Source of the DNA: Felixounavirus LF82P9
Length of the DNA stretch: 64,000 bases
Sequence record: OZ035757.1
Strand: one strand, 5' to 3'
The position numbers and the translations under genes are program-made. Shown here piece after piece: positions 6,730-63,585 of this stretch. Numbering within the stretch: the first letter of the stretch is position 1; the number at the start of each line of letters is the position of its first letter. The notes under the pieces were generated by a model that was not told the origin of the DNA, made no database searches, and saw only the letters and a list, made by a program, of their open reading frames with translations.

Positions 6730-7833
6730 TTACTCATAATCCCTAATAACTAGCCCTACAGGAAACTGTAAAGAACCTTTACGAGTCATCTTCTGGAACT
6801 GAACAGTTAAAGGTTTCCCGATAAACTCTTCAGGATGTTCAGCAAGATACTGTTTCTTCTCGTGTGTAGTTTTCCATGAAACATCTACAAAGACGTTAGG
6901 AAGAGTCTCTACAACGAACTTACCATGACCACGCTTATCGGTCTTTACACCAGTCACTTTAAACTCTTCAGTGTGCATCTTCTTGTGCTTAATCAAGAAG
7001 TATGAACGGTGACAACACTCATAGAAGGAGTCTTCAGAGATTGAACGGTACATTGCACCTTCAAACTTAGCTTCAACCCACTTATCATGAGCTTCATCAA
7101 ACTCTTCCCAAGAATTTACACGACGAGATTTAACAGGAACAACTTTACAGCCGTCTCTAAAGTCATTCAATGGTGAAGTCTCAATAATATCTCTACGCTC
7201 AGGCCACGTTTTAGTACTGTCACAGATATCATACCAGTAGAACTTAAGTAAGTGTCTGTCAGGATTGTCTTCATTTTTAATCATAGAGACAATATCTTCT
7301 AAGTCCCACCCATGAGCATAAATCTCACCATCAAATTCATCAACATCTTTATGGAGCCTCAACATTGCCATAATGTCAGGTATTAGCTCAGTAGGAATTT
7401 TATAAATAGTGTTCTCACGAGAATATGCTGTAAATACACTGCCAATACTCAAGTGTCTTGAAATTCTACAACGGACACCATCAAGTTTTGGTTGAGCATC
7501 AGCAGGGAACTTCAGATACTTTGCATGGCTAACCTTTGCAGCATCATGAGCAAGCTGTACACCTACCTTCTCAGTATTCTGTGCAGACTCTTTTGTGTAA
7601 GCATAACCTTTGCGGTCTACTTGCTTTTTATACTTAGCAGCAACTTCAAAGAGAGCTTGCTGTTCAGCATTACGCTCATTCTTTTTACCGATGTTTTTAG
7701 GTTCTGCTGTATACTCTTCAAACATCATCTTGCCATTTTCTTTACCGTAGGTTGTAATAACTTTGTCACCTACAGCAACACATGACCAGACGTTAAAAGA
7801 GCCGTCTTTATTTTGTTTGTACAGAATTGTCAT
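6730..7833 (-). CDS. ATP-dependent DNA ligase
   Basis: 367 aa; KLDGVRC matches ligase adenylation motif I (K-x-D-G). Confidence 0.75.
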   Translation of the reverse strand: MTILYKQNKDGSFNVWSCVAVGDKVITTYGKENGKMMFEEYTAEPKNIGKKNERNAEQQALFEVAAKYKKQVDRKGYAYTKESAQNTEKVGVQLAHDAAKVSHAKYLKFPADAQPKLDGVRCRISRHLSIGSVFTAYSRENTIYKIPTELIPDIMAMLRLHKDVDEFDGEIYAHGWDLEDIVSMIKNEDNPDRHLLKFYWYDICDSTKTWPERRDIIETSPLNDFRDGCKVVPVKSRRVNSWEEFDEAHDKWVEAKFEGAMYRSISEDSFYECCHRSYFLIKHKKMHTEEFKVTGVKTDKRGHGKFVVETLPNVFVDVSWKTTHEKKQYLAEHPEEFIGKPLTVQFQKMTRKGSLQFPVGLVIRDYE

Positions 7834-8046: not shown

Positions 8047-8307
8047 TCACTCAATAACCGTAGTATGTGATTGTCCATTTTTGCCATAGCTGTAAGATGT
8101 TGTTGTTTGAGAGTTTGGACATCTGACAACAACAATATCTCTGCTTATAGCATCACCATGTAACTTGTATACTCTGCAATCTTGCATCTCTGGTGGGAGG
8201 CTATAAGAAGCATTTTTATCTTCATAAGAAGGGTTGCAGCCAGATAGAAAAATAACACCAAGCGCAATTACCACTTTCCACATAACACTACTCCTATTAC
8301 TGTTCAC
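8047..8307 (-). CDS. small lipoprotein
   Basis: Signal peptide ending in lipobox FLSGC; ~65-aa mature part with 3 Cys. Confidence 0.55.
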   Translation of the reverse strand: MNSNRSSVMWKVVIALGVIFLSGCNPSYEDKNASYSLPPEMQDCRVYKLHGDAISRDIVVVRCPNSQTTTSYSYGKNGQSHTTVIE

Positions 8308-9454: not shown

Positions 9455-12180
9455 TGCACCTCATACCAGCTTTTACCAACCTTACCAGTACCTGTAACAA
9501 GTGTTTCTTTCTTAAGACCTAAGTTTTTAGAAGCTTGTCCATAATACCAGTCAGTAACTGCTTTCACCTCTGCTGTCATACTTTCTGGACATTCCCAGCT
9601 TGTTTCATCGTGATATGCGCAGAGCAAACGAGCACCAATAGCTGGTTGACGACCATTCAACTTCATCAAACCTTCGTCAATCATACGACGACAAGCAAGG
9701 TTGATTGCCTCATTTTGAATCTGAGCCTCTGAACCCATCAAAAGGTAGTTCAACAGTTTGTGTGGAGATTTACACCACAACCAAGCTCCAGCAACCTTTA
9801 CGAAGCCCCCTTTAGAGATTGCAGCGGTCTTACCAAACACCTCTTCAAGTGCCTTTTTAGTTGCTTTGTAGTCAGCTTCCAAGTTATCTAATAGTTTCTT
9901 AATCTTTGGCAAACGCACAAAGTAAGTCTGTTTAGTTAATGCGCCTTCCTGAGTAGTTGCAGCTTTAATCGTCTTAGCAAACTTCTCATCCCCTGCACCG
10001 AACAGTAGTGCATAGATACCATTCTTAGCTTTCTTACGACCTTTGCTAATCTCATGGAGAAGATTCTCATCCTGAGTAGCTCGACAAGTCAAGATATCCT
10101 GCTCATCGTTCAAGCTAAAGTAGATACTGTTCAGTGTATGTGCATCAGTCCCTGAATAAACAACGTACAGGTCATTCTCAGAGTCATAGCGAAGGTACTT
10201 ATCAATCTCTGGGTTGAGGTACTCATCAAAATGTTTACAGTAATAACGTCCATCTTCTTGACGAATAAACTCAATCTCTTCTTTACCTTGTGTTACCGCT
10301 TTGGTGAACTCTTTATCACCCATAAAGTTACAAAGTAGAACTAACTGGGCTGAGTTCATATCAACAGAGACTACGTTGGTTCCCTCTTCACAAATCCACA
10401 CTGCCCTCATTGGTTCTCCATAGACAGCAGCACCAGACGGTACGTTCACAATACCATACTGTGTCATACGTCCAGTTGAAGTACCAAACACCATTGCACC
10501 AGCACTAAGGCGACCATCAGGACGAATCTGGTTCAACCAACCTTTTTCATCATCCTTTGAGTTCTCAATAGTTCTGCGTCGGTGCATCAAAGTATAGTAC
10601 TTAGCAATCTTCTGTCCAAGCTCACCTTCAATCGTATCATAAGATGATTCAGTAAGTTTTGGTGAAGTACGGATTAAGCAAGGCTCAAGCAAATCTGTGT
10701 ACTTCTTCACAGACCAGTTATGCTCAATGTACTGAACACCTTCATGTTCAACATAACTTAAACCACAACGTTCTACCATCTCCTGCCACTTAGGATGTTT
10801 TGTAATCATCTTTTTATTGTCTTTGAAACGACAAACTTTGACAGGGCGGCCGTCTGAGTCTTTCTTGTAGTTCCAGTCATCTGGAATCCAACCAACTGAT
10901 TTCAAGTAGTCTTTAACAACTGCTACCTGAGTCATACGAGAAACTTCAAACTCAATTGGTGTATATGGTGCATCAATCAAACCTGTGTAGCGACTTGACT
11001 CAAGTTCAAAGTGGTTAACAACGTGGCTGTTATAGTACTTCACAGTTTTGACTGTTTTTACTGGCTTCCAGTCTTTGCATTTCTTACCAATCTTTGCATT
11101 CAACTCATTGCAAATTGCACGAGCATCCTTCATTGCTACAAAGCCTTCCTTGTACTCTTCCCCAGTTACAGAGTTGGTTGGTGTATAGCAATTCCTCTTT
11201 TCAATGTTAAAAATCTTTGTAGTTGGCTTACCAAATGGCTTGATTTCGTATGTCTGCATCTCACCGTTACGCACCTGTTGACGGTACTTCGTCTTAGGAT
11301 ACTTGGTAATTCTTTTCAGTCCATCTGCATGACCAAATGCTTCAACATACTCATTCCAAGCTTTTGCAAACTCTTCTCCAGTAACTTTACCTTTGGTCTT
11401 AATAGTTGGAGGTAGATGTGGTTCAACCTCTGAAGCAAGCTCATTAGTCAACTTGTCAAGTTCCTTTACATGGAACTCCATAAGCTCTTTATCAGCTTTC
11501 CAGCCATTGATAGCTTGTTGACTCATCCAAAAAGATGTTTCTTTAGCTCGCATGTAGGTTTCATAAGTATCTATGCCACACTTCTTAAGCTTGAGATATT
11601 CATTATCAAGTGCCCGTTTAGTTTTGGCGTTAATACGGATATCTTCTACAACACGAGTGAAGATTTCTGCATTCCACACACCCCAATGTTCAATCTCTGG
11701 TTTACGAACACCGACACGAGCACCCCATGCAGCCAAACCATGAGCACCTTTATAACCCTTTGGAGTTGGTCTATCCATCCACTGAACACGAGACTGGATA
11801 AGAGAATCCTGAAAGAAATTACTCCACGGTTTACACTTTGGATTATCAAAGTTCCATAAATCAGGTGCAATGTGATTGAAAACCCACCAGTCATAACCGA
11901 GACCGTTATGGATGCAAAGACGTTTTGCCTTTAACGCAAACTCAATACCTTCACGTAAGCCACCCTTAATGTACTTGGTATACTTGTGACCGAGGATAGG
12001 CTCATCTGTAAAGACCCATACAGGCGGCTCTTCATCGTCAGATTTATAGTCTGCGAAAGCCATTACGTGCACTTTAGTGAACTCAAGGAGTAAACCATCA
12101 GTTTCTGTATCACCAACTAAATGTAAGTTTTTAAAATCTACGTTTTCCATTTTTACTCCCTCTAAAATCATTAACCTCAT
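9451..12180 (-). CDS. DNA polymerase, family A (T7-like)
   Basis: 909 aa; DTETDG exonuclease motif, Pol I motifs (VDMNSAQL, YALLFGAGDEK, AYHDETSWE) alignable to T7 gp5. Confidence 0.9.
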   Translation of the reverse strand: MRLMILEGVKMENVDFKNLHLVGDTETDGLLLEFTKVHVMAFADYKSDDEEPPVWVFTDEPILGHKYTKYIKGGLREGIEFALKAKRLCIHNGLGYDWWVFNHIAPDLWNFDNPKCKPWSNFFQDSLIQSRVQWMDRPTPKGYKGAHGLAAWGARVGVRKPEIEHWGVWNAEIFTRVVEDIRINAKTKRALDNEYLKLKKCGIDTYETYMRAKETSFWMSQQAINGWKADKELMEFHVKELDKLTNELASEVEPHLPPTIKTKGKVTGEEFAKAWNEYVEAFGHADGLKRITKYPKTKYRQQVRNGEMQTYEIKPFGKPTTKIFNIEKRNCYTPTNSVTGEEYKEGFVAMKDARAICNELNAKIGKKCKDWKPVKTVKTVKYYNSHVVNHFELESSRYTGLIDAPYTPIEFEVSRMTQVAVVKDYLKSVGWIPDDWNYKKDSDGRPVKVCRFKDNKKMITKHPKWQEMVERCGLSYVEHEGVQYIEHNWSVKKYTDLLEPCLIRTSPKLTESSYDTIEGELGQKIAKYYTLMHRRRTIENSKDDEKGWLNQIRPDGRLSAGAMVFGTSTGRMTQYGIVNVPSGAAVYGEPMRAVWICEEGTNVVSVDMNSAQLVLLCNFMGDKEFTKAVTQGKEEIEFIRQEDGRYYCKHFDEYLNPEIDKYLRYDSENDLYVVYSGTDAHTLNSIYFSLNDEQDILTCRATQDENLLHEISKGRKKAKNGIYALLFGAGDEKFAKTIKAATTQEGALTKQTYFVRLPKIKKLLDNLEADYKATKKALEEVFGKTAAISKGGFVKVAGAWLWCKSPHKLLNYLLMGSEAQIQNEAINLACRRMIDEGLMKLNGRQPAIGARLLCAYHDETSWECPESMTAEVKAVTDWYYGQASKNLGLKKETLVTGTGKVGKSWYEVH

Positions 12181-25346: not shown

Positions 25347-27491
25347 ATGAACAAAGTACAGATTATTAAAAAGAACGGCTCACTTGAAGAACCTGATATC
25401 AAAAAAGTTTTAGCAGCAGTCACAAAGTCAGCTAACAGAGTTGGTTATAAAGAGCTTCCACCAGATGTTACTCAAGCTCTTGAGTCAGCATTTATGAGGA
25501 TTCTGGTAAAGTCCACTAAGCAGAATAATTTGCTAATTTCTGTAAATGATATTCACAGTATTGTTGAAGGTGCTTTGGCAGAAGTTAATCACGAGATTTA
25601 TGAGTCTTACTCAACATACAGAAATTACCGTAAAGAGGTTGCTCAAAATTGGGATGAACTCTACCAGAAGACTAAAGATACACTCTTCTTAGGTGACCGT
25701 GAAAATGCTAACTTTGACAGCAGTTTAATTTCTACGAAAGGTTCAATTATCCGTGGTTACCTGACTAAAGAAATCTTTAAACAGTACCATTTAACACCAG
25801 AGGAACTTGAAGCCATTGAAAAAGGATTTATCTATATCCATGATTTAAGAGACCTAATTTTTGGTGGTATCAACTGTTGCCTGTTTGACATTGGTAAAGT
25901 CCTGAAAGGTGGCTTTGAAATGTCTGGCATCGAATATTGTGAACCAAAGTCTGTACTGTCGGCCTTACAGGTTATAGGTGACGTAGTTCTTTCAGCAACT
26001 GCACAGCAATTTGGTGGTTTTACTTTAGCAGAGATTGATAAGGTACTCATACCGTATGCTAAGAAGTCTCTACGCTATCATGCTGAGAAAGCAGCATCTT
26101 ATGGTATTCCTAAAGAACATTACCACAATTATGTCATGGAGCAGCTACAGATTGAACTGACTCAAGGTTTCCAGTCACTTGAAATGAAACTAAACACTGT
26201 ACCTTGTAGTCGTGGGGATTTTGCATTTACAACTTTAACATTTGGGTTGCTCGACTCAGATATGTCTAATGAAGACAACCGACTACAATACATGATTGCA
26301 AGTACTCTCCTAGATGTTCGTATGAATGGACAAGGTAAGAGCAAGAAGCCTGTTGTATTCCCTAAACTGGTTTATATTTATGACCAGAAGAGACATAATG
26401 AGAATATCTGTCAAGGCCACCTGTACAGTAAAGCTATAGAGTGTTGCTCTAAAGCGATGTATCCAGATTTCTTAAGTGTATCTGGTCATGGTGCTGTAGC
26501 AGAGGCTTTTGAGCGTTCTGGCAAGGTTATTTCGCCGATGGGTTGCCGAGCGTTCTTATCTCCGTATCTTAACGAGAATGGGGAAGAGTTCTACGTTGGT
26601 CGTGCTAACATTGGTGCTGTATCTTTGAACTTACCAATGATTTACCAGTATTCTAAAGAGAATGGTTTAGATTTCTGGAAAGAGCTTGATAAGTACCTAG
26701 AGATGATTCGCAGCTTCCACAAGAAACGCTACGAAATGATTGCTAATATGCCAGCAAGTTCTAACCCTCTTGCATTCACACAAGGTGGTCTGTACAAAGG
26801 GACTAAGAAACCTACTGACAAGGTTGGTTGGGATATCGTGAAGTCCTTCACAGCTTCTTTTGGGGTTACTGCTCTTGATGAACTGTCTGTTCTTGCTGAA
26901 GGTAAACGACTTCATGAAGTTGGAAGATATAGTTTTGCATACGATGTTCTGGAATACATCAACATGAAAACTGAAGAGTTTAAGAACGAAGATGGCTTCT
27001 TGTATGCGGTATATGGTACTCCAGCAGAATCACTTTGTGGAACTCAGTTAAAACAGTTCAGAGATATGTTTGGCGTTATTAAAGGTGTCTCTGACAAGGA
27101 ATACTTTACAAACAGTTTCCATATGAATGTTGCAGCAGACATCTCACCATTTGAGAAGCAGGACTTAGAAGAGCCATTCTTCCATATCTGTAGAGGTGGC
27201 AGAATCCAGTATGTAAGGGTAGCTAACCCAGAAAACTTAACAGCACTTAAAAGTTGTATTACCAGAGGGATGTTGAAGGGTTTTTATCAGGGACTTAACT
27301 TTGACTTAGCAATCTGTGAACATTGTGGTAACAGACCAAAGGCTGATGTTGAAGAATGTGAGGTTTGCCATTCACATGATATCTCTGTGATTAACAGGGT
27401 GTGCGGGTATCTTGGGTGGACCAAGATTAAAGGTGAATCCCGAATGAACGATGCAAAAATCGCTGAGATTCGTGATAGAGTCTCTATGTAA
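25347..27491 (+). CDS. nrdD: anaerobic ribonucleoside-triphosphate reductase
   Basis: 714 aa; C-terminal Cys cluster (CEHCG ... CEVCH) and glycyl-radical motif RVCGYLG. Confidence 0.9.
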   Translation: MNKVQIIKKNGSLEEPDIKKVLAAVTKSANRVGYKELPPDVTQALESAFMRILVKSTKQNNLLISVNDIHSIVEGALAEVNHEIYESYSTYRNYRKEVAQNWDELYQKTKDTLFLGDRENANFDSSLISTKGSIIRGYLTKEIFKQYHLTPEELEAIEKGFIYIHDLRDLIFGGINCCLFDIGKVLKGGFEMSGIEYCEPKSVLSALQVIGDVVLSATAQQFGGFTLAEIDKVLIPYAKKSLRYHAEKAASYGIPKEHYHNYVMEQLQIELTQGFQSLEMKLNTVPCSRGDFAFTTLTFGLLDSDMSNEDNRLQYMIASTLLDVRMNGQGKSKKPVVFPKLVYIYDQKRHNENICQGHLYSKAIECCSKAMYPDFLSVSGHGAVAEAFERSGKVISPMGCRAFLSPYLNENGEEFYVGRANIGAVSLNLPMIYQYSKENGLDFWKELDKYLEMIRSFHKKRYEMIANMPASSNPLAFTQGGLYKGTKKPTDKVGWDIVKSFTASFGVTALDELSVLAEGKRLHEVGRYSFAYDVLEYINMKTEEFKNEDGFLYAVYGTPAESLCGTQLKQFRDMFGVIKGVSDKEYFTNSFHMNVAADISPFEKQDLEEPFFHICRGGRIQYVRVANPENLTALKSCITRGMLKGFYQGLNFDLAICEHCGNRPKADVEECEVCHSHDISVINRVCGYLGWTKIKGESRMNDAKIAEIRDRVSM

Positions 27492-56758: not shown

Positions 56759-58174
56759 ATGAGCGAATTATTTAAACATGCGCACCTTCATGCAGGTCGA
56801 ACTGAAAATGGTGCTGTAAACCATACTTCATCAATGTCTGCTCTTGTGGACTTTTACAAAGCTGCTGGTTCTAGCCGTAGCAATGTAGAAATCTTACCAG
56901 ACTTGTTCTACAAAGCTTTGCATGAGGATGTTGATGTTGCAGTTCGTATTTTACTGCATATGCGAGATGTACGAGAAGGTATGGGTGAGCGTAAAGCTTT
57001 CCGAACTGTTTTACTTCAAGCGATTGAAGATAAAGTTCTAGAGTCTACACAGGTTCTTCGCATTATGGATAAGATTGCAGAGCTTGGTCGCTTTGATGAT
57101 TTCAAAATCTTCGTGGGTACTCGTTTCGAGACAGATGCCTTCAAGCATTTAGAAGCAGCATTACTAGACCCTGCAACAGCAGGTTTGGCAGCTAAGTGGT
57201 TACCACGAGTCAAACCACGTCATAAGCAGTTTGTAAAACGTTTCTGCAAGTTTGCCAACTTGAGTGAGAAAGAGTACCGCACACTGTTGTCTGCACTATC
57301 TGATACAGTTGAGCAAAAAATCTCTGCTAATGAGTTTGGTAAGATTGACTACAGTAAGATTCCTTCACTTGCTGCTGCACGTTACCAAAAACTGTTTAAC
57401 CGTAAAGATGGAGAGCGTTACAAAGCTTACATCGAGTCCTTATCAAAAGGTGAGACTAAGATTAACGCTGGTGCTGTTTACCCATACGATGTGATTAAAT
57501 CTGTCAAGTATGGTAATGCAGATGTTGCTAATGAGCAGTGGAAAGCACTACCAAACTGGATGGCAGAAGGTGAAAACATCTTGTGTATGTCTGATGTATC
57601 AAGTTCAATGTCTTGGGTGAATTTTGGCTCCATTACTGCTCTGGATATTGGTGTATCACTTGCCTTGTATGTAGCAGAACGCAATACAGGTTGCTTTAAG
57701 AATGAGTTAATGGTTTATTCAACAAACCCTCACTTCATCGAACTGAGTGGTGATTTACGAAACCGTCATCGTCAGGTGATGCGACACGTTGAATATGGCT
57801 CAACTAACTTACAAGCAGCTTTTGACCGCATTCTTGAAACAGGTAAAAGAAACAACTTGACTCAGAAAGATATGCCAAGTAAGCTTATCATCTTCTCCGA
57901 TATGGAGTTCAATCAGGTTGATGGAGCTAACGGTCGTACAAACTTTGAAGCAATTCAGAGTAAGTACAAAAAAGCTGGATATGAGATGCCACAACTGGTA
58001 TTCTGGTACTTAGCAAACCGTAATGGTACTTGCGAAGTATCTGTTAAGGATAACGGTGTAGCAATGGTATCAGGGTTCTCTCCAGCCACTTTAAAAGCTC
58101 TGCTTGGTGGTGAGAAGTTTGACCCAATCAGTGTAATGCTCAAAGCAGTAATGATTGACCGTTATATCTGGTAA
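56759..58174 (+). CDS. vWA-domain protein with large N-terminal helical domain (Ro60/TROVE-like architecture)
   Basis: C-terminal region has MIDAS-like D-x-S-x-S (CMSDVSSSM), downstream T and D (LIIFSDMEF); ~280-aa N-terminal domain; directly upstream of tRNA array. Confidence 0.5.
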   Translation: MSELFKHAHLHAGRTENGAVNHTSSMSALVDFYKAAGSSRSNVEILPDLFYKALHEDVDVAVRILLHMRDVREGMGERKAFRTVLLQAIEDKVLESTQVLRIMDKIAELGRFDDFKIFVGTRFETDAFKHLEAALLDPATAGLAAKWLPRVKPRHKQFVKRFCKFANLSEKEYRTLLSALSDTVEQKISANEFGKIDYSKIPSLAAARYQKLFNRKDGERYKAYIESLSKGETKINAGAVYPYDVIKSVKYGNADVANEQWKALPNWMAEGENILCMSDVSSSMSWVNFGSITALDIGVSLALYVAERNTGCFKNELMVYSTNPHFIELSGDLRNRHRQVMRHVEYGSTNLQAAFDRILETGKRNNLTQKDMPSKLIIFSDMEFNQVDGANGRTNFEAIQSKYKKAGYEMPQLVFWYLANRNGTCEVSVKDNGVAMVSGFSPATLKALLGGEKFDPISVMLKAVMIDRYIW

Positions 58175-58192: not shown

Positions 58193-58221
58193 TTGACAAT
58201 GTGTTTAATACCCTTTAATAT
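58193..58221 (+). promoter_or_regulatory. sigma70-like promoter overlapping hairpin
   Basis: TTGACA, 17-nt spacer, TAATAT; -35 lies in loop of stem aagggtatt/aataccctt. Confidence 0.5.
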
Positions 58222-58339
58222 GTTCTACATAGAAGCGAAATGAGAGCTTTTCTAAGATACTGAAAAATATTTTAAAAAAGTTCTTGACAACCACTAAAAA
58301 ATAATGTTAAAGTGGTTACATAGAGTTTGAAAAGTTTAT

Positions 58340-58416
58340 CTCTGTTTAGCTCAGCTTGGTAGAGCGTTCCGTTTGGGGCGGTAAGGCCGGAGGTTCAAGT
58401 CCTCCAACAGAGACCA
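58340..58416 (+). tRNA. tRNA-Pro(TGG)
   Basis: Cloverleaf; acceptor ctctgtt/aacagag; anticodon loop ttTGGgg; T-loop TTCAAGT; CCA encoded. Confidence 0.75.
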
Positions 58417-58423
58417 AATTAAT

Positions 58424-58501
58424 GTTCCAGTAGACAAAATGGTAAAGTCACCACTCTTTCAAAGTGGATATCTGAGGGTTCAAATCCCTTCTGGAACGCC
58501 A
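58424..58501 (+). tRNA. tRNA-Glu(TTC)
   Basis: Acceptor gttccag/ctggaac; anticodon loop ctTTCaa; T-loop TTCAAAT; CCA encoded. Confidence 0.8.
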
Positions 58502-58508
58502 GTTTTGA

Positions 58509-58581
58509 CAGAAGACCAATTACAGCAAACTTAATCTTATTCATCTGAAGGTAAATCGGACAAAGAAGAGATTTGGTCTGG
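58509..58581 (+). other. box-bounded spacer element E1 (candidate small structured RNA)
   Basis: 5' box CAGAAGACCaaTTACAGCAAA, 3' box tGGTCTGGt; AGACC/GGTCT can pair; family recurs at 58676, 59133, 59220. Confidence 0.4.
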
Positions 58582-58592
58582 TCATTAAGAAT

Positions 58593-58669
58593 TGCGGGTA
58601 TAGAGAAAGGGCGTCTCACATGTCTCATTAGCATGGTATCGGCAGGTTCGACTCCTGCACCCGCCTCCA
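58593..58669 (+). tRNA. tRNA-Met-like(CAT), atypical
   Basis: Anticodon loop ctCATta; T-loop TTCGACT; CCA encoded; 1:72 mismatch (U-C) and extra nt before D-stem. Confidence 0.5.
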
Positions 58670-58675
58670 AATTTA

Positions 58676-58741
58676 CAGAAGACCGTTTACAGCAAAATTG
58701 AATGAAATTTTTAGCGGAAAAAATTGAAAGATACGGTCTGG
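58676..58741 (+). other. box-bounded spacer element E2
   Basis: 5' box CAGAAGACCgtTTACAGCAAA, 3' box cGGTCTGGt. Confidence 0.4.
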
Positions 58742-58754
58742 TAATACTAAACAT

Positions 58755-58831
58755 GGTTAGGAAGCACATAAGGTATGTGCGGTCGCCTGTTAAGCGAATG
58801 GCACAGGGTTCGAATCCCTGACTAACCGCCA
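58755..58831 (+). tRNA. tRNA-Asn(GTT)
   Basis: Anticodon loop ctGTTaa; T-loop TTCGAAT; CCA encoded. Confidence 0.8.
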
Positions 58832-58900
58832 AATTTAGGAGAGAAGCGATTGCTCACCGATTTGTAAGGTGCAAGTCCTTAGCCTGAATAGAAATTAAAT

Positions 58901-58988
58901 GTGTCGTTATCCCGTAGATGGTAGCGGTGGGGACTGTAAATCCCTTGTCATTGAGACTCGGTAGGTTCGACTCCTACACGGCACACCA
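58901..58988 (+). tRNA. tRNA-Tyr(GTA)
   Basis: Anticodon loop ctGTAaa; long variable arm; T-loop TTCGACT; CCA encoded. Confidence 0.8.
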
Positions 58989-58993
58989 ATAAA

Positions 58994-59071
58994 GGTTATG
59001 TAGTTTAATTTGGTTAAAATACTCCCCTGTCACGGGAGATGATGAGGGTTCAAATCCCTTCGTAACCGCCA
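58994..59071 (+). tRNA. tRNA-Asp(GTC)
   Basis: Anticodon loop ctGTCac; T-loop TTCAAAT; CCA encoded. Confidence 0.8.
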
Positions 59072-59132
59072 ATTTTGAGAGGGCTATTTAGCCCCTCCCT
59101 TAAAGGGTTCTTACGAGTATCCTTTAAAGGAG

Positions 59133-59206
59133 CAGAAGACCAAATACAGCAAGAACGTATGAAATTTCAAGCCAATTTAATTTTGAAAATTTAAAACTTG
59201 GTCTGG
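59133..59206 (+). other. box-bounded spacer element E3
   Basis: 5' box CAGAAGACCaaaTACAGCAAg, 3' box tGGTCTGGc. Confidence 0.4.
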
Positions 59207-59219
59207 CTCAACAAATTTA

Positions 59220-59351
59220 CAGAAGACCGTTTACAGCAAAACTTAAACAATCTATTTCTCCGGTAAAGAAAAGGCGAAGGTTCGATTCCTTCACTCGGCA
59301 GAGGTCGAGTTGGTGTAATGGTAGCACTTAAGATGATAAACAACGGTCTGG
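59220..59351 (+). other. box-bounded spacer element E4 (contains tRNA-fragment-like segments)
   Basis: 5' box CAGAAGACCgtTTACAGCAAA, 3' box cGGTCTGGt; interior holds T-arm plus 3'-acceptor-like segment without a matching 5' acceptor. Confidence 0.4.
59276..59300 (+). pseudogene. tRNA 3'-half-like remnant (T-arm only)
   Basis: gaagg-TTCGATT-ccttc followed by actcggc; no complementary 5' acceptor strand found within 200 nt upstream. Confidence 0.35.
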
Positions 59352-59500
59352 TAATTATCTTTGTAGATAAGTTATTAAGCTTACCTGTGAGTATGCGACC
59401 ACAAAGGGTGAAAGGGTAAATTCTAGATTTAAACCCAAAAAGGCACATCGCTACAGACCTTAAGCAAGTCTGGGTAGCTTATCTACAAAGATAATTTAAT

Positions 59501-59576
59501 GGAAGTGTAGCAGAATGGTGATGCGGCAGACTTTTAATCTGACAGGCGATGGGTTCGAATCCCTCCACTTCTACCA
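59501..59576 (+). tRNA. tRNA-Lys(TTT)
   Basis: Anticodon loop ctTTTaa; T-loop TTCGAAT; CCA encoded. Confidence 0.8.
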
Positions 59577-59581
59577 AAAAT

Positions 59582-59658
59582 GGTTCAGTCGCAGATAAGG
59601 TAATGCAAGGGTTTCATAAGCCCTATGAATGTGGGTTCGATTCCCACCTGAACCTCCA
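59582..59658 (+). tRNA. tRNA-Met(CAT) (or Ile-lysidine type)
   Basis: Anticodon loop ttCATaa; T-loop TTCGATT; CCA encoded. Confidence 0.75.
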
Positions 59659-59659
59659 A

Positions 59660-59735
59660 GCTGGTATAGTTAAGAAGGTTATAACACTCCCCTGATAAGG
59701 GAACATCGGTGGTTCGATTCCACCTACCAGTACCA
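59660..59735 (+). tRNA. tRNA-Ile(GAT)
   Basis: Anticodon loop ctGATaa; T-loop TTCGATT; CCA encoded. Confidence 0.8.
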
Positions 59736-59750
59736 ATTTCAATAAAGTTG

Positions 59751-59779
59751 TTGACATTGAGATGTGACTACTTTATAGT
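59751..59779 (+). promoter_or_regulatory. sigma70-like promoter inside tRNA array
   Basis: TTGACA, 17-nt spacer, TATAGT. Confidence 0.55.
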
Positions 59780-60010
59780 AACCTTAGTTTTCGTTGCGTA
59801 GCGTCTATTTTGCAAATTTAAAATAAATGCAAACGACAATGTTTTTCTGGCAGTAGCTTGATAGGCTAAACACCAGTGAGGTCTTCCAATCCCTCATCAA
59901 AGAATTTGGCGTACTAGCCCACGGTATGATTAATAAGGTGGGCAACATTCTAAAGGGTATCCCTTATGGGGCTTGGCTTAAATGCAATAAGTACCCTTTA
60001 AAATGTTAAT

Positions 60011-60087
60011 GCACCCTTAGTTCAATTGGATAGAGCAACGGTCTTCTAAATCGTTAGTTACAGGTTCGAATCCTGTAGGGTGTACCA
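60011..60087 (+). tRNA. tRNA-Arg(TCT)
   Basis: Anticodon loop ctTCTaa; T-loop TTCGAAT; CCA encoded. Confidence 0.8.
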
Positions 60088-60229
60088 AATAGTTAGCAGA
60101 TTGCTTAGACGACCTTATCGGGTCTCCGTGTAAGGAGGTGGTCTGTATCTCATGTTTTCCAGAACATGTAAATAATCTGAGAAGGGGCTTGACAGTGTTG
60201 AGATAATACGGTAAGCTTCGAATTGTAGT

Positions 60230-60312
60230 GTGGGACGATGTTAAGACTCTAAGGCATGAGCAACGGCCTCCAAAACCGTTTCAAAGGGGTTCAACTCCTC
60301 CGTCCCATGCCA
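60230..60312 (+). tRNA. tRNA-Trp-like(CCA), atypical
   Basis: Acceptor gtgggac/gtcccat and T-loop TTCAACT clear; anticodon loop ctCCAaa; ~8 extra nt between acceptor and D-stem. Confidence 0.4.
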
Positions 60313-60325
60313 AAGTCTTATTAGG

Positions 60326-60413
60326 GGTAGGTAGCGGCTAATGGCAGCCAAACAGTCTTGAAAACTGTTGCCACTGTAGAGATACGGTGAGGGTTCGACT
60401 CCTTTACTTACCG
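60326..60413 (+). tRNA. tRNA-Ser(TGA)
   Basis: Anticodon loop ctTGAaa; long variable arm; T-loop TTCGACT; CCA not encoded. Confidence 0.8.
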
Positions 60414-60671
60414 CCTAATAAGATTTTACACCGTCCATGCTTGCTCGCATTTTCGGTTTATCCCTCGTGTATTGTCGTACACACTGATAAAGCACCTAGT
60501 AGGTGTCACGGAGAAGAGATAATATCAAGCTCTCCAAAGGTTCTAGTCACCGGATTAAACAAGACTATGCAAAGACCTTTTTAGGTCTTTTTAGAGGGCT
60601 TCTAAGGTTATTACAGCTTGTTGTGGAACCTTGTTGCTTAGGTTCTTAGAAGTTCTCTAAAAAGATTTAAT

Positions 60672-60749
60672 GGGAGATTGACGGTAATTGGTAAACCTAC
60701 CATCCTTAGAAGTTGGTGTTTGAGGGTTCGAATCCCTTGTCTCCTACCA
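60672..60749 (+). tRNA. tRNA with anticodon TAG (Leu by anticodon), short variable arm
   Basis: Acceptor gggagat/gtctcct; anticodon loop ctTAGaa; T-loop TTCGAAT; CCA encoded; A73; anticodon stem has one mismatch. Confidence 0.5.
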
Positions 60750-60756
60750 AATTAAT

Positions 60757-60832
60757 GCAGGTGTAGCAAAATGGTTATGCGGCTGACTCTTAATCAGTAA
60801 GACGATGGGTTCAATTCCCTCCACCTGTACCA
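60757..60832 (+). tRNA. tRNA-Lys(CTT)
   Basis: Anticodon loop ctCTTaa; near-paralogue of tRNA-Lys(TTT); CCA encoded. Confidence 0.75.
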
Positions 60833-60838
60833 AAAAAT

Positions 60839-60914
60839 GGGGTCATAGTTTATATGGTTAAAATTCGAGTTTTGCAAACTTGGGAACTGAGTTCAATTCT
60901 CAGTGACTCCACCA
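60839..60914 (+). tRNA. tRNA-Ala(TGC)
   Basis: Anticodon loop ttTGCaa; G3-U70 wobble pair in acceptor stem; CCA encoded. Confidence 0.8.
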
Positions 60915-60920
60915 ATTAGT

Positions 60921-60995
60921 GCATCCATAGTTTAAACGGGAAAATTACAGTCTTCCAAACTGAGGTTGAGGGTTCGATTCCCTCTGGATGCTCCA
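60921..60995 (+). tRNA. tRNA-Gly(TCC)
   Basis: Anticodon loop ctTCCaa; T-loop TTCGATT; CCA encoded. Confidence 0.8.
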
Positions 60996-61002
60996 AATTA
61001 AT

Positions 61003-61078
61003 GCTCCTATCGTATAATTGGCTATTACGGTTGCCTTGTAAGCAACTTATCAGGGTTCGAATCCTTGTGGGAGCACCA
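61003..61078 (+). tRNA. tRNA-Thr(TGT)
   Basis: Anticodon loop ctTGTaa; perfect anticodon stem; CCA encoded. Confidence 0.8.
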
Positions 61079-61174
61079 ATTCAGAGGTCAAGTGAAAGAC
61101 CGCTTTGAGTCAACTGAAGACCGTAACAAATTCCACGGAGTTGAGTTAGCGGCACAACTTCAGACCTCTTTCAC

Positions 61175-61249
61175 ACTCGCTTAGTTTATATGGTAAAACA
61201 CCACCCTTACAAGATGAAGAAAAAGGTTCAAGTCCTTTAGTGAGTACCA
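61175..61249 (+). tRNA. tRNA-Val-like(TAC)
   Basis: Acceptor, D and T arms good; anticodon loop ctTACaa but anticodon stem only 3 of 5 pairs. Confidence 0.5.
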
Positions 61250-61250
61250 T

Positions 61251-61328
61251 GTTCCAGTATCCCAATTGGCAGAGGATGCAAGCTCAAACCTTGTATTAGT
61301 GACGGTTCGAATCCGTCTTGGAACACCA
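61251..61328 (+). tRNA. tRNA with anticodon CAA (Leu by anticodon), short variable arm
   Basis: Anticodon loop ctCAAac; 3-bp D-stem with long D-loop; 6-nt variable region; A73; CCA encoded. Confidence 0.55.
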
Positions 61329-61333
61329 ATTTT

Positions 61334-61409
61334 GCAGGATTAGTTCAAATGGATAGAGCAACAGTCTACGAAGCTGTTAATAGGGGTTCGAACCCCTTAT
61401 CCTGCACCA
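61334..61409 (+). tRNA. tRNA-Arg(ACG)
   Basis: Anticodon loop ctACGaa; T-loop TTCGAAC; CCA encoded. Confidence 0.8.
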
Positions 61410-61427
61410 GATAAGCAAGAGGAATTT

Positions 61428-61670
61428 ATGCAAACATTAATCGTCGTTGAACATGAAAATTCCAATAGTATTGAGTTTGTAAGGGTTCCCACTATAGATA
61501 CCCACATTTTCTTAAAAGTCGGATGGGAATGCGACCCAATAAAAGTAGAAAGATTTATTGGTCATTGCTTTGGTGGAAGACAACTTAAAAGTGTCAATTT
61601 TGAGACAATGTTACCAGAAAGCTCAGAAACAAGTAATAATGCTTACCTCCTTACGAGGGTTAGACAATGA
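61428..61670 (+). CDS. hypothetical protein inside tRNA array
   Basis: ORF track; starts 18 nt after tRNA-Arg. Confidence 0.4.
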   Translation: MQTLIVVEHENSNSIEFVRVPTIDTHIFLKVGWECDPIKVERFIGHCFGGRQLKSVNFETMLPESSETSNNAYLLTRVRQ

Positions 61671-62224
61671 GATACTTAAAATATGCTTCATGGATTTTCT
61701 TAGCTTTGCTAGAACCACTTGCAGCAATACTAGCAGTTATCTTAGCACCTTTTGTAGTTCCATTCTACAGTGAGAAGAAAGGACACTTACCTTTCGGGTT
61801 CAGATGGATGGAGACATATGACAACCCAATTGATGGTGATGAAGGTCACGTTAAAAGATGGGCTAATATCAGATGGATTGGTAAACTAGGTGTCTACATG
61901 CAAAGAGTCGGATGGCTCTGGAGAAACAAAGCTTATAACTTCTCTTACCATGTATTAGGAAGAGATGTAAAAGATGTTACTAAGTGGAAAGGTAATATCA
62001 ACGTAAGTTCTGACCCTGAAGATAATCAGACAGGTTATCTCCTAATGTGGAACAGTAATGCTTGGGGATTATTCGCTTTTATCCCATCAATTAAAATCTT
62101 TGGTAAACAATTTTACTGGAGAATTTATATTGGATGGAAACTAAAAAGTGTTGTCCCAGAAGAAAGAGCATTCTCAAGGGAAAGAGTTATGTTGGCATTC
62201 TTTATTCATCCACTGAGAAAGTAA
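61667..62224 (+). CDS. Trp-rich membrane protein inside tRNA array
   Basis: N-terminal TM (WIFLALLEPLAAILAVILAPFVV); ATGA overlap with upstream ORF. Confidence 0.45.
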   Translation: MRYLKYASWIFLALLEPLAAILAVILAPFVVPFYSEKKGHLPFGFRWMETYDNPIDGDEGHVKRWANIRWIGKLGVYMQRVGWLWRNKAYNFSYHVLGRDVKDVTKWKGNINVSSDPEDNQTGYLLMWNSNAWGLFAFIPSIKIFGKQFYWRIYIGWKLKSVVPEERAFSRERVMLAFFIHPLRK

Positions 62225-62232
62225 AGATTTAA

Positions 62233-62308
62233 AGGGGATTAGTTTACAAGGTTAAAACCTCGGTCTTTGAAATCGAAGAAGTTGGTTCAATTCCAACATC
62301 CCCCGCCA
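62233..62308 (+). tRNA. tRNA-Gln(TTG)
   Basis: Anticodon loop ctTTGaa; T-loop TTCAATT; A1-C72 mismatch; CCA encoded. Confidence 0.75.
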
Positions 62309-62310
62309 AT

Positions 62311-62389
62311 GCTCCATTACTCCAATTGGCAGAGAGGCCAGACTTAAAATCTGTGTTATGTATCGGTTCGAATCCGATATGGAGTACCA
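62311..62389 (+). tRNA. tRNA with anticodon TAA (Leu by anticodon), short variable arm
   Basis: Anticodon loop ctTAAaa; D-arm paralogous to the CAA tRNA; A73; CCA encoded. Confidence 0.55.
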
Positions 62390-62394
62390 AATTT

Positions 62395-62470
62395 AGCGGC
62401 ATAGCATAACTGGCAATGCAGCAGTCTCTGAAGCTGTCTTATTAAGGTTCAAATCCTTATGCCGCTGCCA
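62395..62470 (+). tRNA. tRNA-Gln(CTG)
   Basis: Anticodon loop ctCTGaa; T-loop TTCAAAT; CCA encoded. Confidence 0.8.
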
Positions 62471-62501
62471 CTTCTAAGGATTCTTACGAGAGTCCTTAAA
62501 T

Positions 62502-62577
62502 GTGGCCTTATCATAAATGGTAATGACCCATGCTGTGAACATGGTCTATACGGGTTCAAATCCCGTAGGTCACCCCA
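62502..62577 (+). tRNA. tRNA-His(GTG)
   Basis: Anticodon loop ctGTGaa; perfect anticodon stem; C73; CCA encoded. Confidence 0.8.
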
Positions 62578-62582
62578 ATTTA

Positions 62583-62659
62583 TAGTCCAAGTAGCTTATA
62601 TGGTTAAAGCGCGTGTCTGAAAAACATGAGAAGAGGGTTCAAATCCCACTGGACTACCA
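62583..62659 (+). tRNA. tRNA-Phe(GAA)
   Basis: Anticodon loop ctGAAaa; D-arm ta-gctt...aagc; acceptor register ambiguous by 2 nt. Confidence 0.65.
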
Positions 62660-62675
62660 ATTTCAAAGGTGCTTA

Positions 62676-63410
62676 ATGAAAGAGATGACAGAACAAGGTA
62701 AGGAGATTTTCAATCTCTTAAAAACCGGTAAAGGGTTTTCTAACCCCCTTATTACTGGTGCAGCAGTTCTCGGTGGAACCGTAGCTGCCTCTACATCACT
62801 TGTAAGCTCTATTAGCTCTGTATCAGACCCTGCAGTAAAGGATAAGCTTGTTGCTGCTGGACTTACAACAGTTCTGCTTAACAGCTTTACCACGAGTCTG
62901 ACAAGCACTACATCAACTACCAAAACACTAACAGATTACGGTCAAAAGTCCATTGATGAGTTTTCATCACGTATGCAGGTAGCAAAAGGTTACTCTAATG
63001 TTATGGGTGCAGCAGGTGAACAAGTTGGCTGTACACCATTTAGTGGTATTATGGGTGTTGCTACAGAGTATGGTCAAAAAGCTATTGATACGATTAACAG
63101 TGCACTAGATAGTGTTAATGGTGTGTTAAGTGACTTACAAGATGCTATTGACAAAGGTCTTGATACTATTTCTGATTTAGCTGAGCAAGCTGTTAGTAAG
63201 ATTAATGAAGGTATTTCAAAAATTACAGCTTATGCAGATGAAGTTGTGCAGATGATTGAAGAAGAAGCTGCTCTTATTGCAGAGTACCTTAAAACGAATA
63301 TCAATGGGTTCTTAGCAGGTATCTTACCAGACTGGTTTGATGATGCTTGTAAAACTGGTGTAATTGACACTATTGCAACACCAGAAATGAAGAACGCATT
63401 ACAGAAATAA
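62676..63410 (+). CDS. Ser/Thr-rich membrane protein inside tRNA array
   Basis: ORF 62613-63410 trimmed to Met after tRNA-Phe; hydrophobic segment then S/T-rich tract; stop 2 nt before tRNA-Ser. Confidence 0.45.
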   Translation: MKEMTEQGKEIFNLLKTGKGFSNPLITGAAVLGGTVAASTSLVSSISSVSDPAVKDKLVAAGLTTVLLNSFTTSLTSTTSTTKTLTDYGQKSIDEFSSRMQVAKGYSNVMGAAGEQVGCTPFSGIMGVATEYGQKAIDTINSALDSVNGVLSDLQDAIDKGLDTISDLAEQAVSKINEGISKITAYADEVVQMIEEEAALIAEYLKTNINGFLAGILPDWFDDACKTGVIDTIATPEMKNALQK

Positions 63411-63412
63411 AT

Positions 63413-63505
63413 GGAAGATTAACCCTAAAAGGTAAGGGAGCAGTTTGCTAAACTGCCAGTAGCTGAGAAATCGGTGTACCAGTTCAAGTCTGGTATCTTC
63501 CTCCA
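63413..63505 (+). tRNA. tRNA-Ser(GCT)
   Basis: Anticodon loop ttGCTaa; long variable arm; perfect acceptor ggaagat/atcttcc; CCA encoded. Confidence 0.85.
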
Positions 63506-63509
63506 ATTT

Positions 63510-63585
63510 GAATCCGTGACAGAAATGGCTATGTGCCTGTCTGCAAAACAGGTTTATAAGGGTTCGAGTCCCTTCGGATTCTCCA
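63510..63585 (+). tRNA. tRNA-Cys(GCA)
   Basis: Anticodon loop ctGCAaa; perfect anticodon stem; CCA encoded. Confidence 0.85.

Follow-up and report, generated by a model that had tools for sequence, protein, structure and literature searches.

The stretch of Felixounavirus LF82P9 DNA analysed here (64,000 nucleotides (nt), sequence record OZ035757.1; hereafter the window) is 95-98% identical to many phages of E. coli and Salmonella, and carries an array of 26 tRNA genes on the + strand (58340-63585). Directly upstream of the array is an open reading frame (ORF) of the DUF2828 family, the stop codon of which is 166 nt before the first tRNA gene. Interleaved with the tRNA genes in the first part of the array are four elements, E1 to E4, that sit 340-1050 nt 3' of the DUF2828 gene, with two promoter-like sites and several tRNA genes between. 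The four elements belong to a conserved, covarying family of structured RNAs, and this family and the DUF2828 gene are linked in viral genomes whichever of the two is taken as the starting point. We consider it probable that E1-E4 are four small RNA genes, analogues of the Y RNAs, whose products are partners of the Ro60-like protein encoded upstream.

A preliminary description of this DNA had recognised the repeated elements, and reading the sequence again we found all four where it had placed them, on the + strand. Three exact copies of the 5' box GACCNNTWACAGCAA are found, at 58514, 58681 and 59225, and a fourth copy at 59138 has a single mismatch; all are on the + strand, and no further match with 0-1 mismatch exists on either strand of the 64 kb. 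The stem that had been expected to close each element is also there, as a helix of 7-8 bp in every one of them. The elements thus share a handle (Table 1), which consists of this terminal helix, 5' AG.../...CUG 3', followed by the single-stranded motif UACAGCAA immediately 3' of its 5' strand. E1, E2 and E3 are short forms. The interior of E3 is a hairpin with GCCA in the loop, and it is conserved across the Ounavirinae.

Table 1. Positions of the features discussed (in the window unless a numbered viral locus is given).
Feature	Position	Strand	Details and basis
Ro60-like protein gene	56759-58174	+	471 amino acids; DUF2828 and DUF7788 (Pfam); PHROG 850 'RNA-binding protein'; predicted fold
Putative sigma-70-like promoter	58193-58221	+	TTGACA-17-TAATAT; pattern match in consensus scan, function presumed
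Putative sigma-70-like promoter	58284-58313	+	TTGACA-18-TAAAGT with TG; pattern match in consensus scan, function presumed
E1, short handle RNA	58510-58583	+	helix 58513-58519/58573-58579; UUACAGCAA 58520-58528; 3' CUGG
E2, short handle RNA	58677-58743	+	helix 58680-58686/58733-58739; UUACAGCAA 58687-58695
E3, short handle RNA	59134-59208	+	helix 59137-59143/59198-59204; AUACAGCAA 59144-59152
E4, long form	59221-59353	+	handle 59224-59231/59342-59349; UACAGCAA 59232-59239; encloses circularly permuted tRNA-like domain
E4, 4-bp stem CUUA/UAAG	59242-45/59329-32	+	fold
E4, V-like hairpin	59255-59271	+	fold
E4, canonical T arm, loop UUCGAUU	59276-59292	+	fold
E4, acceptor-like stem, 7 bp, ACUCGGC/GUCGAGU, loop AGAG	59293-59299/59304-59310	+	fold
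E4, D arm with GG	59313-59327	+	fold
Next promoter-like site	59751-59779		strong; consensus scan
Giant-virus-like arrays	L100 11172-11694; L148 171-795; L192 5841-6272; L195 6179-6236	gene's strand	handle RNAs

For comparison we assembled 80 viral loci encoding homologs of the DUF2828 protein, 5 of them Felix-like and the others 38-47% identical (single loci are cited as L075, L026 and so on). Close to the gene, many of them contain an 'orphan' T arm, in the same layout with different helix sequences. A descriptor of this layout (a helix followed after 1-3 nt by C(A/C)GCAA, then 25-190 nt of interior, the complementary strand and a final G) was matched in most loci and gave the consensus aAG-R-N4-5 nUA CAGCAA ... 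N'4-5-Y-CU-G. From non-Felix loci we then built two covariance models, R1 from 25 short elements (alignment A3) and R2 from 13 long elements (alignment A6). On both strands of the window the three best matches of R1 are E1, E2 and E3 (35.5, 35.3 and 22.9 bits, with approximate E-values of 1e-6, 1.2e-6 and 2e-3), and the next match has E 0.14; orthologs of E3 score 29.6-38.1 bits. The top match of R2 in the window is E4, aligned at full length with 58.3 bits (E 2e-9), and true tRNAs reach at most 25 bits. The covariance-model search and structural alignment that the preliminary description had proposed therefore came out in favour of the family, as models built without Felix sequences recover all four elements and their helices covary. 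The Rfam model Dicty_Class_I also aligns with E1 (19.7 bits) at identical boundaries, and with E2 (15.9 bits).

Across the 80 loci R1 gave 81 matches at E<=0.01 in 52 loci. All 81 are on the strand of the DUF2828 gene and none is inside it, and 47 of the 67 non-Felix matches are within 300 nt of the gene. Since 25 of the loci with matches have no tRNA gene, and the matches keep to the gene's strand, the RNA family follows the DUF2828 gene and not the tRNA arrays. The preliminary description had proposed looking for the boxes in related phage tRNA arrays; the family is conserved beyond the window, and what it tracks is the DUF2828 gene rather than the tRNAs. The linkage was also found in reverse. 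The pattern AAGGATNNNTACAGCAAN{20,50}ATCCTG has 20 specified bases, for which we calculate a chance rate near 5.6e-11 per base (from 2 strands x 31 gap lengths / 4^20), and it matched 106 stretches in the viral collection. A DUF2828 homolog was present within the short piece fetched for 38 of these; in the 38, 39 of 40 elements are on the strand of the gene at a median distance of 398 nt, and several of the pieces without such a match come from contigs known to bear the gene elsewhere. The genomic linkage of the RNA family with the DUF2828 gene is therefore two-way.

The helices of the family covary strongly. In A3, the 7 core pairs of the closing helix form in all 25 sequences, and a single G-C pair among them never varies; cells with a double change number 62, compared with 18 +/- 3 in shuffles, and pairing is 48% when the partners are shifted by one column. 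In A7, a model-based alignment of 24 long forms, 96% of the cells are paired and both sides have changed in 16 of 17 pairs, with 134 double-change cells against 38 expected and 35-45% pairing in the slid controls. When the search was anchored on the motif, a closing helix with a score of at least 17 was found at 27% of the + strand motifs and 4.6% of those on the - strand, and at 7.7% after the downstream sequence had been shuffled. One-sided A-to-G changes in the closing helices yield G.U pairs, which are tolerable only in RNA of this strand. Felix O1, phiSUSP1, Michonne and Sf17 each contain all four elements in synteny, with no annotation for them in the records, and the elements are syntenic and stable across the genera of the Ounavirinae.

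In E4 the handle encloses a tRNA-like domain in circularly permuted order. The preliminary description had regarded its T arm and 3' acceptor strand as unpartnered, which was mistaken: the 5'-half-like segment that follows is the partner, forming 7 bp closed by the loop AGAG. The suggestion that such segments are remnants of tRNA rearrangement is likewise unsupported, E4 being a complete permuted domain that is conserved from enterobacterial to mycobacterial phages. Among the orthologs the acceptor stem covaries, from ACUCGGC/GUCGAGU to ACACG/CGUGU, and in Michonne it reads ACCCUUC-G-CCA...GAAGGGU. With the Rfam tRNA model only positions 17-71, the 3' two-thirds, can be aligned, and a few GenBank records label E4 as 'tRNA-Thr' or 'tRNA-OTHER'.

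In several members of the family N-CCA directly follows the acceptor-like 3' strand, for example CCACCAC-A-CCA and ACCCUUC-G-CCA (L075 7860-7885 and 7449-7518, L028 ~8225-8250, L064 ~7580-7600, Michonne (L083) ~2820-2845, and E3 of the window at ~59170-59180). By analogy with YrlA of M. smegmatis, for which this has been shown, the encoded N-CCA suggests RNase P or CCA-type processing into two pieces. Variants of another kind occur at L053 5734-5833, L028 7895-8015 and 8025-8137, and L026 4278-4390. The handle can there enclose a tRNA in normal, non-permuted order, whose acceptor stem it replaces or extends (L053), and some 'tRNA' matches of 115-120 nt bear an insertion that starts with uuCAGCA.

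The protein family is spread widely. By tblastn, 709 phage records contain a DUF2828 homolog, among them phages of Vibrio, Campylobacter, Listeria, Staphylococcus, Enterococcus, Bacillus and Mycobacterium, and the mycobacteriophage homologs are annotated as 'Ro-like RNA binding protein'. Handle RNAs accompany them: three lie just upstream of the gene in Listeria phage List-36, one just upstream in Campylobacter phage CP81, and in mycobacteriophage Lolly9 two short forms and one tRNA-like form (R2 74 bits) are found within the 380-nt gap after the gene. Giant-virus contigs, which we reached via the protein (bins of giant virus metagenome-assembled genomes (GVMAG) and two contigs of the Joint Genome Institute (JGI), 297 and 319 kb), also encode DUF2828 homologs followed by same-strand arrays of handle RNAs of 43-65 nt, with up to 8 of them in 800 nt, beside a DUF2828 clade of 550-600 amino acids. 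A study of Listeria phage CKA15 detected the homolog CKA15_055 in purified virions and proposed Y RNAs. We considered the top-transcribed noncoding RNA region of CKA15 (26,236-26,727) as a possible handle RNA and rejected it, as it maps about 0.7-1.2 kb upstream of the List-36 elements; the region being off the handle elements, that paper gives no expression support. At Rfam gathering thresholds the window and 10 distant loci contain tRNAs, permuted tmRNA (transfer-messenger RNA) and a group I intron, and nothing else. Judged by these comparisons of sequence, the E family is widespread, previously undescribed and absent from Rfam, and in the window it comprises four defined putative RNA genes with a candidate binding module.

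The DUF2828 family is uncharacterised and occurs also in plants. Our literature searches for DUF2828, PF11443, UCP015417 and DDB_G0281243 returned nothing functional, and matches to the motif strings were primers only. In the product of the window ORF, Pfam found DUF2828 and DUF7788 alone, with no TROVE domain; its vWA_Ro60 model matched 5 of 30 homologs weakly. Searches of the sequence against the PDB gave nothing significant, and a profile search ranked Ro60 at E 0.8, so that a structure model was needed for the link to Ro60. An AlphaFold2 model from 30 homologs had a predicted local distance difference test score (pLDDT) of 86 and a predicted template-modelling score (pTM) of 0.86. Its 11 best Foldseek matches in the PDB are all Ro60/Rsr structures, namely Xenopus and human Ro60, D. 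radiodurans Rsr and the Ro60 of Thermus phage phiLo, over the full length (E 2e-8 to 5e-7, template-modelling score at most 0.67), and matches beyond these are restricted to the von Willebrand factor A (vWA) domain. The predicted model contains the HEAT-repeat ring and the C-terminal vWA/MIDAS (metal ion-dependent adhesion site) domain, with full-length matches to 2i91, 1yvr, 2nvo and 9l5y, at about 12-15% identity to the Ro60 structures. The protein is thus predicted to fold like Ro60/Rsr. Proteins of this kind bind Y RNAs; one of the bacterial Y RNAs, YrlA, contains a tRNA-like domain with a loop closing its acceptor stem (PMC4201824).

A link between such a protein and phage RNAs has been guessed before. 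In a 2024 preprint on PhageMaP, gp130 of the Felixounavirus Bas63 was described as structurally Ro60-like, encoded directly upstream of tRNAs and active against the Ppl defence system of bacteria (PMC11482910). Its authors wrote that 'some tRNA genes are possibly Y RNAs' and identified no RNA (PMC11482910). That guess becomes, in the present analysis, four defined candidate RNA genes beside a protein that has been shown genetically to defeat a bacterial defence, and the uncharacterised DUF2828 family is assigned a likely ligand.

Transcription, processing, stability, protein binding and function of E1-E4 we infer as follows. In a consensus scan no terminator-like site was found on the + strand between the promoter-like sites at 58193 and 58284 and the next one at 59751. 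Together with the positions of these sites, this points to E1-E4 being made with the tRNAs Pro, Glu, Met, Asn, Tyr, Asp, Lys, Met and Ile; the transcripts from 58193 and 58284 would be cut and the four RNAs excised from a precursor shared with nine tRNAs. The shared handle would bind the Ro60-like protein and present a variable cargo, which is a permuted tRNA-like domain in E4, as in YrlA, and a small hairpin in E1-E3, that of E3 resembling an acceptor minihelix with GCCA. The cargo would recruit or gate a partner of the ribonucleoprotein particle (RNP), and by analogy with the particles of Ro60, Y RNA and polynucleotide phosphorylase (PNPase), the RNP would, while the phage infects, steer or gate an activity that is RNA-metabolising or serves counter-defence. 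The preliminary description had listed stable small RNAs co-transcribed with the tRNAs among its options, and this is the one favoured here, by the conserved covarying family, the strand shared with the tRNAs and the unit running from promoter to promoter, though it had missed the DUF2828 context.

Several points weigh against reading E1-E4 as Y RNA analogues. Folded singly they have unexceptional energies (z -0.6 to -1.4), so their support must come from comparison, and in the comparison the covariation counts are partly circular because pairing helped to select the sequences. This circularity is mitigated by the motif-anchored test, the independent recovery of E1-E4, the slid controls and the positional orthologs. 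The E-values of the covariance models are rough, their calibration having been shortened. The elements remain below the gathering scores of the established models (69 bits for RF02553, the YrlA family; 41.5 bits for RF01414, the Class I RNAs of dictyostelids, reached by none of them), YrlA has no match on E4 at E<=10, and its motif GNCGAAN0-1G does not occur near the 5' end of the phage handle. Finally, gp130 alone, on a plasmid or inserted into T7, restored plaquing on Ppl cells (PMC11482910). The Ppl phenotype therefore needs no phage RNAs, as gp130 alone rescues T7, and from its genus and gene position the window ORF is presumably the ortholog of Bas63 gp130.

The last point would also suit independent small RNAs of the phage, for example tRNA or acceptor-stem decoys for tRNA-targeting nucleases of the host or for tRNA-processing enzymes, which travel with the DUF2828 gene without binding its product. 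Such RNAs could well have a cargo that is tRNA-like, as in E4, or minihelix-like with NCCA, as in E3, L075 7449-7518 and the Michonne ortholog of E4, and could be embedded among tRNA genes, as the elements are in the Ounavirinae. However, the conserved part is the handle and not the cargo, and a single-stranded motif that is conserved beside a helix that covaries is what protein-binding sites typically look like. In distant viruses, tRNA-free loci included, this handle lies within tens to hundreds of nt of the DUF2828 gene and on the same strand. We regard such independent RNAs as unlikely. Still less probable is a role in cis, in which the elements would be sites on the mRNA or operon of DUF2828, for example autoregulatory binding sites or stabilisers in its untranslated regions. 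At many loci a lone short element is found at a distance of 27-60 nt from the gene's stop or start codon, as might be expected of such sites. Elsewhere, however, the elements are up- or downstream of it in up to 5-8 tandem copies, those of the window are beyond two promoter-like sites and tRNA genes, and the long forms bear complete tRNA-like domains.

Very improbable, finally, are signals for processing of tRNA precursors or leader structures, degenerate remnants of tRNAs, and repeats like miniature inverted-repeat transposable elements (MITEs) with terminal inverted repeats. Interleaving with tRNAs, complementary termini, tRNA halves in E4 and the GenBank labels of that element as a tRNA all pointed in this direction, and the preliminary description had named tRNA-processing or leader structures as an option. 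This option is unsupported, as the 25 loci with the family and no tRNA show. All matches being on one strand, the helices covarying with a fixed motif, the synteny being stable across the Ounavirinae and the fold of E4 being complete, permuted and conserved as far as mycobacteriophages, these explanations are largely refuted by the strand, covariation and tRNA-free-locus results. The Y RNA reading therefore remains the one that we prefer.

Other parts of the array are structured as well. The segment at 59454-59473, which had been called a shorter relative of the elements, is not a member: it has no R1 match at E<=10 and forms one hairpin of a separate structure of 145 nt (59353-59497) with a perfect closing helix of about 24 bp, AUUAUCUUUGUAGAUAAG.../...CUUAUCUACAAAGAUAAU, and several hairpins within (z -7.2). 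The spacers before 60230 and 61175 do not belong to the family either, and 61083-61169 is a different structured hairpin (z -3.5). The short hairpin motif AAGGRTTCTTACGAG, in turn, was correctly reported to occur twice, at 59103-59117 and 62476-62490, where 0.22 occurrences are expected with at most 2 mismatches; both copies fold to a hairpin of 10-11 bp with the conserved loop UCUUACGAG and are unrelated to the E family. The spacer at 60581-60670 is strongly structured (z -4.4) and contains a mini-hairpin, AAGGUU-auuACAGCUU...AACCUUG, that is a faint echo of the handle and undetected by R1. Between tRNA-Asn and tRNA-Tyr, the spacer at 58832-58900 has a T-arm-like hairpin, UAAGGugcaaguCCUUA, at 58865-58881 and folds better than 200 of 200 shuffles; it may be a degenerate tRNA.

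At ~60230-60312 there is an atypical tRNA-like gene with the anticodon loop CUCCAAA (Trp, CCA), seen also at L006 ~9990-10065. ARAGORN makes no call there, the sole Rfam match is tRNA-Sec with 23 bits, and no other tRNA-Trp is called in the array. Within 59677-59881, at 59820-59860, 'gcaaacgacaatgtttttctggcagtagcttgatag' reads A-N-D-N-V-F-L-A-V-A-stop-stop and resembles a tmRNA tag. The Rfam families of permuted tmRNA (29.2 bits, E 0.004) and of tmRNA match weakly here, just 3' of the strong promoter-like site at 59751-59779. No tmRNA was called by ARAGORN in the window. A permuted tmRNA that exceeds the gathering score is present at another DUF2828 phage locus (L026 1353-1676).

Among known systems, the tRNA cluster of phage T4 had been offered as an analogy. 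Its species 1 and 2 RNAs (rnaC and rnaD) are likewise small stable RNAs that lie in a phage tRNA cluster and come from a tRNA precursor, so the context is similar, but they differ in being without the handle and were not detected as family members. We rejected them as relatives, R1 giving no match and R2 only one on the T-arm segment of rnaC, with 12.9 bits. In the T4 stretch that we examined, no Ro60-like gene was found.

Bacterial Y RNAs of the YrlA type (PMC4201824; RF02553; Yrl1/2 of phiLo, PMC12135203) are closer. They too adjoin, on the same strand, a gene for a protein of the Ro60 fold, a fold that is predicted for the phage protein, with several RNAs per locus, and their 5' and 3' ends pair into a stem beside a short conserved motif. 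YrlA has the permuted order of modules seen in E4, namely variable (V) arm, T arm, closed acceptor stem and D arm, and YrlB lacks the tRNA-like module, as the short paralogs of the E1-E3 type do. In E4 the permuted tRNA-like domain is enclosed by an end-paired stem and its T and acceptor helices covary. With respect to location (within ~4 kb of a Ro60 ortholog on the same strand), position and strand of the elements agree, and the protein is Ro60-like by its predicted fold and not by TROVE. Even the neighbourhood of the rsr-yrlA-rtcB operon in bacteria (PMC4201824) has a likeness in List-36, in which the DUF2828 gene is followed, about 1.3 kb downstream, by a gene for the RtcB 'tRNA splicing ligase' (L199 6310-7521). 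YrlA is the best sub-threshold Rfam match to the long forms, with 28.7 and 25.2 bits in L075; in Lolly9 it reaches 37.7 bits (E 7e-7) over the tRNA-like core only (model positions 23-89), the Ro-binding ends being unaligned. All of these scores fall far short of the gathering score of RF02553. The systems differ in the protein, which has the Pfam TROVE domain there and DUF2828/DUF7788 here, and in the handle, which is GNCGAAN0-1G (the proposed Rsr contact) in YrlA and UACAGCAA plus AG.../...CUG in the phages. A GGCGAAG at 59273-59279 is at the V/T junction of E4 and is not conserved in the orthologs. The Ro60/Y-RNA design, a handle with a tRNA-like or other cargo, thus probably exists in a second version with a different handle and a different protein family.

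The handle itself most resembles the Class I RNAs of dictyostelids. These are 42-65 nt long, with a short stem of the 5' and 3' ends in which a conserved 5' G pairs with the C of 3' CUGU, an 11-nt motif CCUUACAGCAA beside the 5' strand and a variable interior, and they were reported to be unique to Dictyostelia (PMC7919456). In both groups the terminal stem varies in sequence and (CC)UUACAGCAA directly follows its 5' strand. In the phage family the G-C pair is likewise invariant in 25 of 25 sequences while the other pairs covary, and at the 3' end the window has CUGG and other loci CUGU or CUGA. The motif appears as UUACAGCAA in E1, E2 and E4 and as AUACAGCAA in E3, agreeing at 8-9 of 11 positions, the first two of which belong to the helix in phages. 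E1-E3, at 67-75 nt, are longer than the Class I range; the short phage forms have a median of 59.5 nt and the Class I RNAs one of 58 nt. RF01414 matches 5 of 6 short elements tested, with exact boundaries and 15.9-24.3 bits (24.3, 19.7 and 16.0 bits in L075), and does not match E3. The two differ in register by one nt, the phage helix having A-U and then G-C where that of Dictyostelium starts with G-C, so that the consensus is aAGgat...TaCAGCAAa ... cctg in phages and GtTGaCCTTACAGCAAa ... CTG in Dictyostelium. Class I RNAs are expressed from promoters with the Dictyostelium upstream sequence element (DUSE), whereas hosts and promoters of the phage family are bacterial or viral. Rnp1A, a protein with an RNA recognition motif (RRM), is the sole protein shown to bind a Class I RNA directly. 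One of four proteins pulled down with DdR-21, an RNA of Class I, is the uncharacterised DDB_G0281243 (bioRxiv 10.1101/2020.04.05.026054). Our protein-database searches with the window ORF, a giant-virus homolog and a 722-amino-acid homolog, and a cluster look-up, returned viral or metagenomic sequences only. The resemblance may stem from shared ancestry, or the two groups may have converged on a shared protein fold. We offer as a tentative idea, in our view somewhat more doubtful than probable, that a second branch of Ro60-like RNPs, of DUF2828 type, spans phages, giant viruses and eukaryotes and has as its recognition module the handle (AG-stem, UUACAGCAA, stem'-CUG), with the abundant Class I RNAs as cellular members. 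If so, a DUF2828-type partner would be expected in amoebae, DDB_G0281243 being one candidate, and the mechanism of the Class I RNAs, in question since 2004, would have a concrete hypothesis that can be tested.

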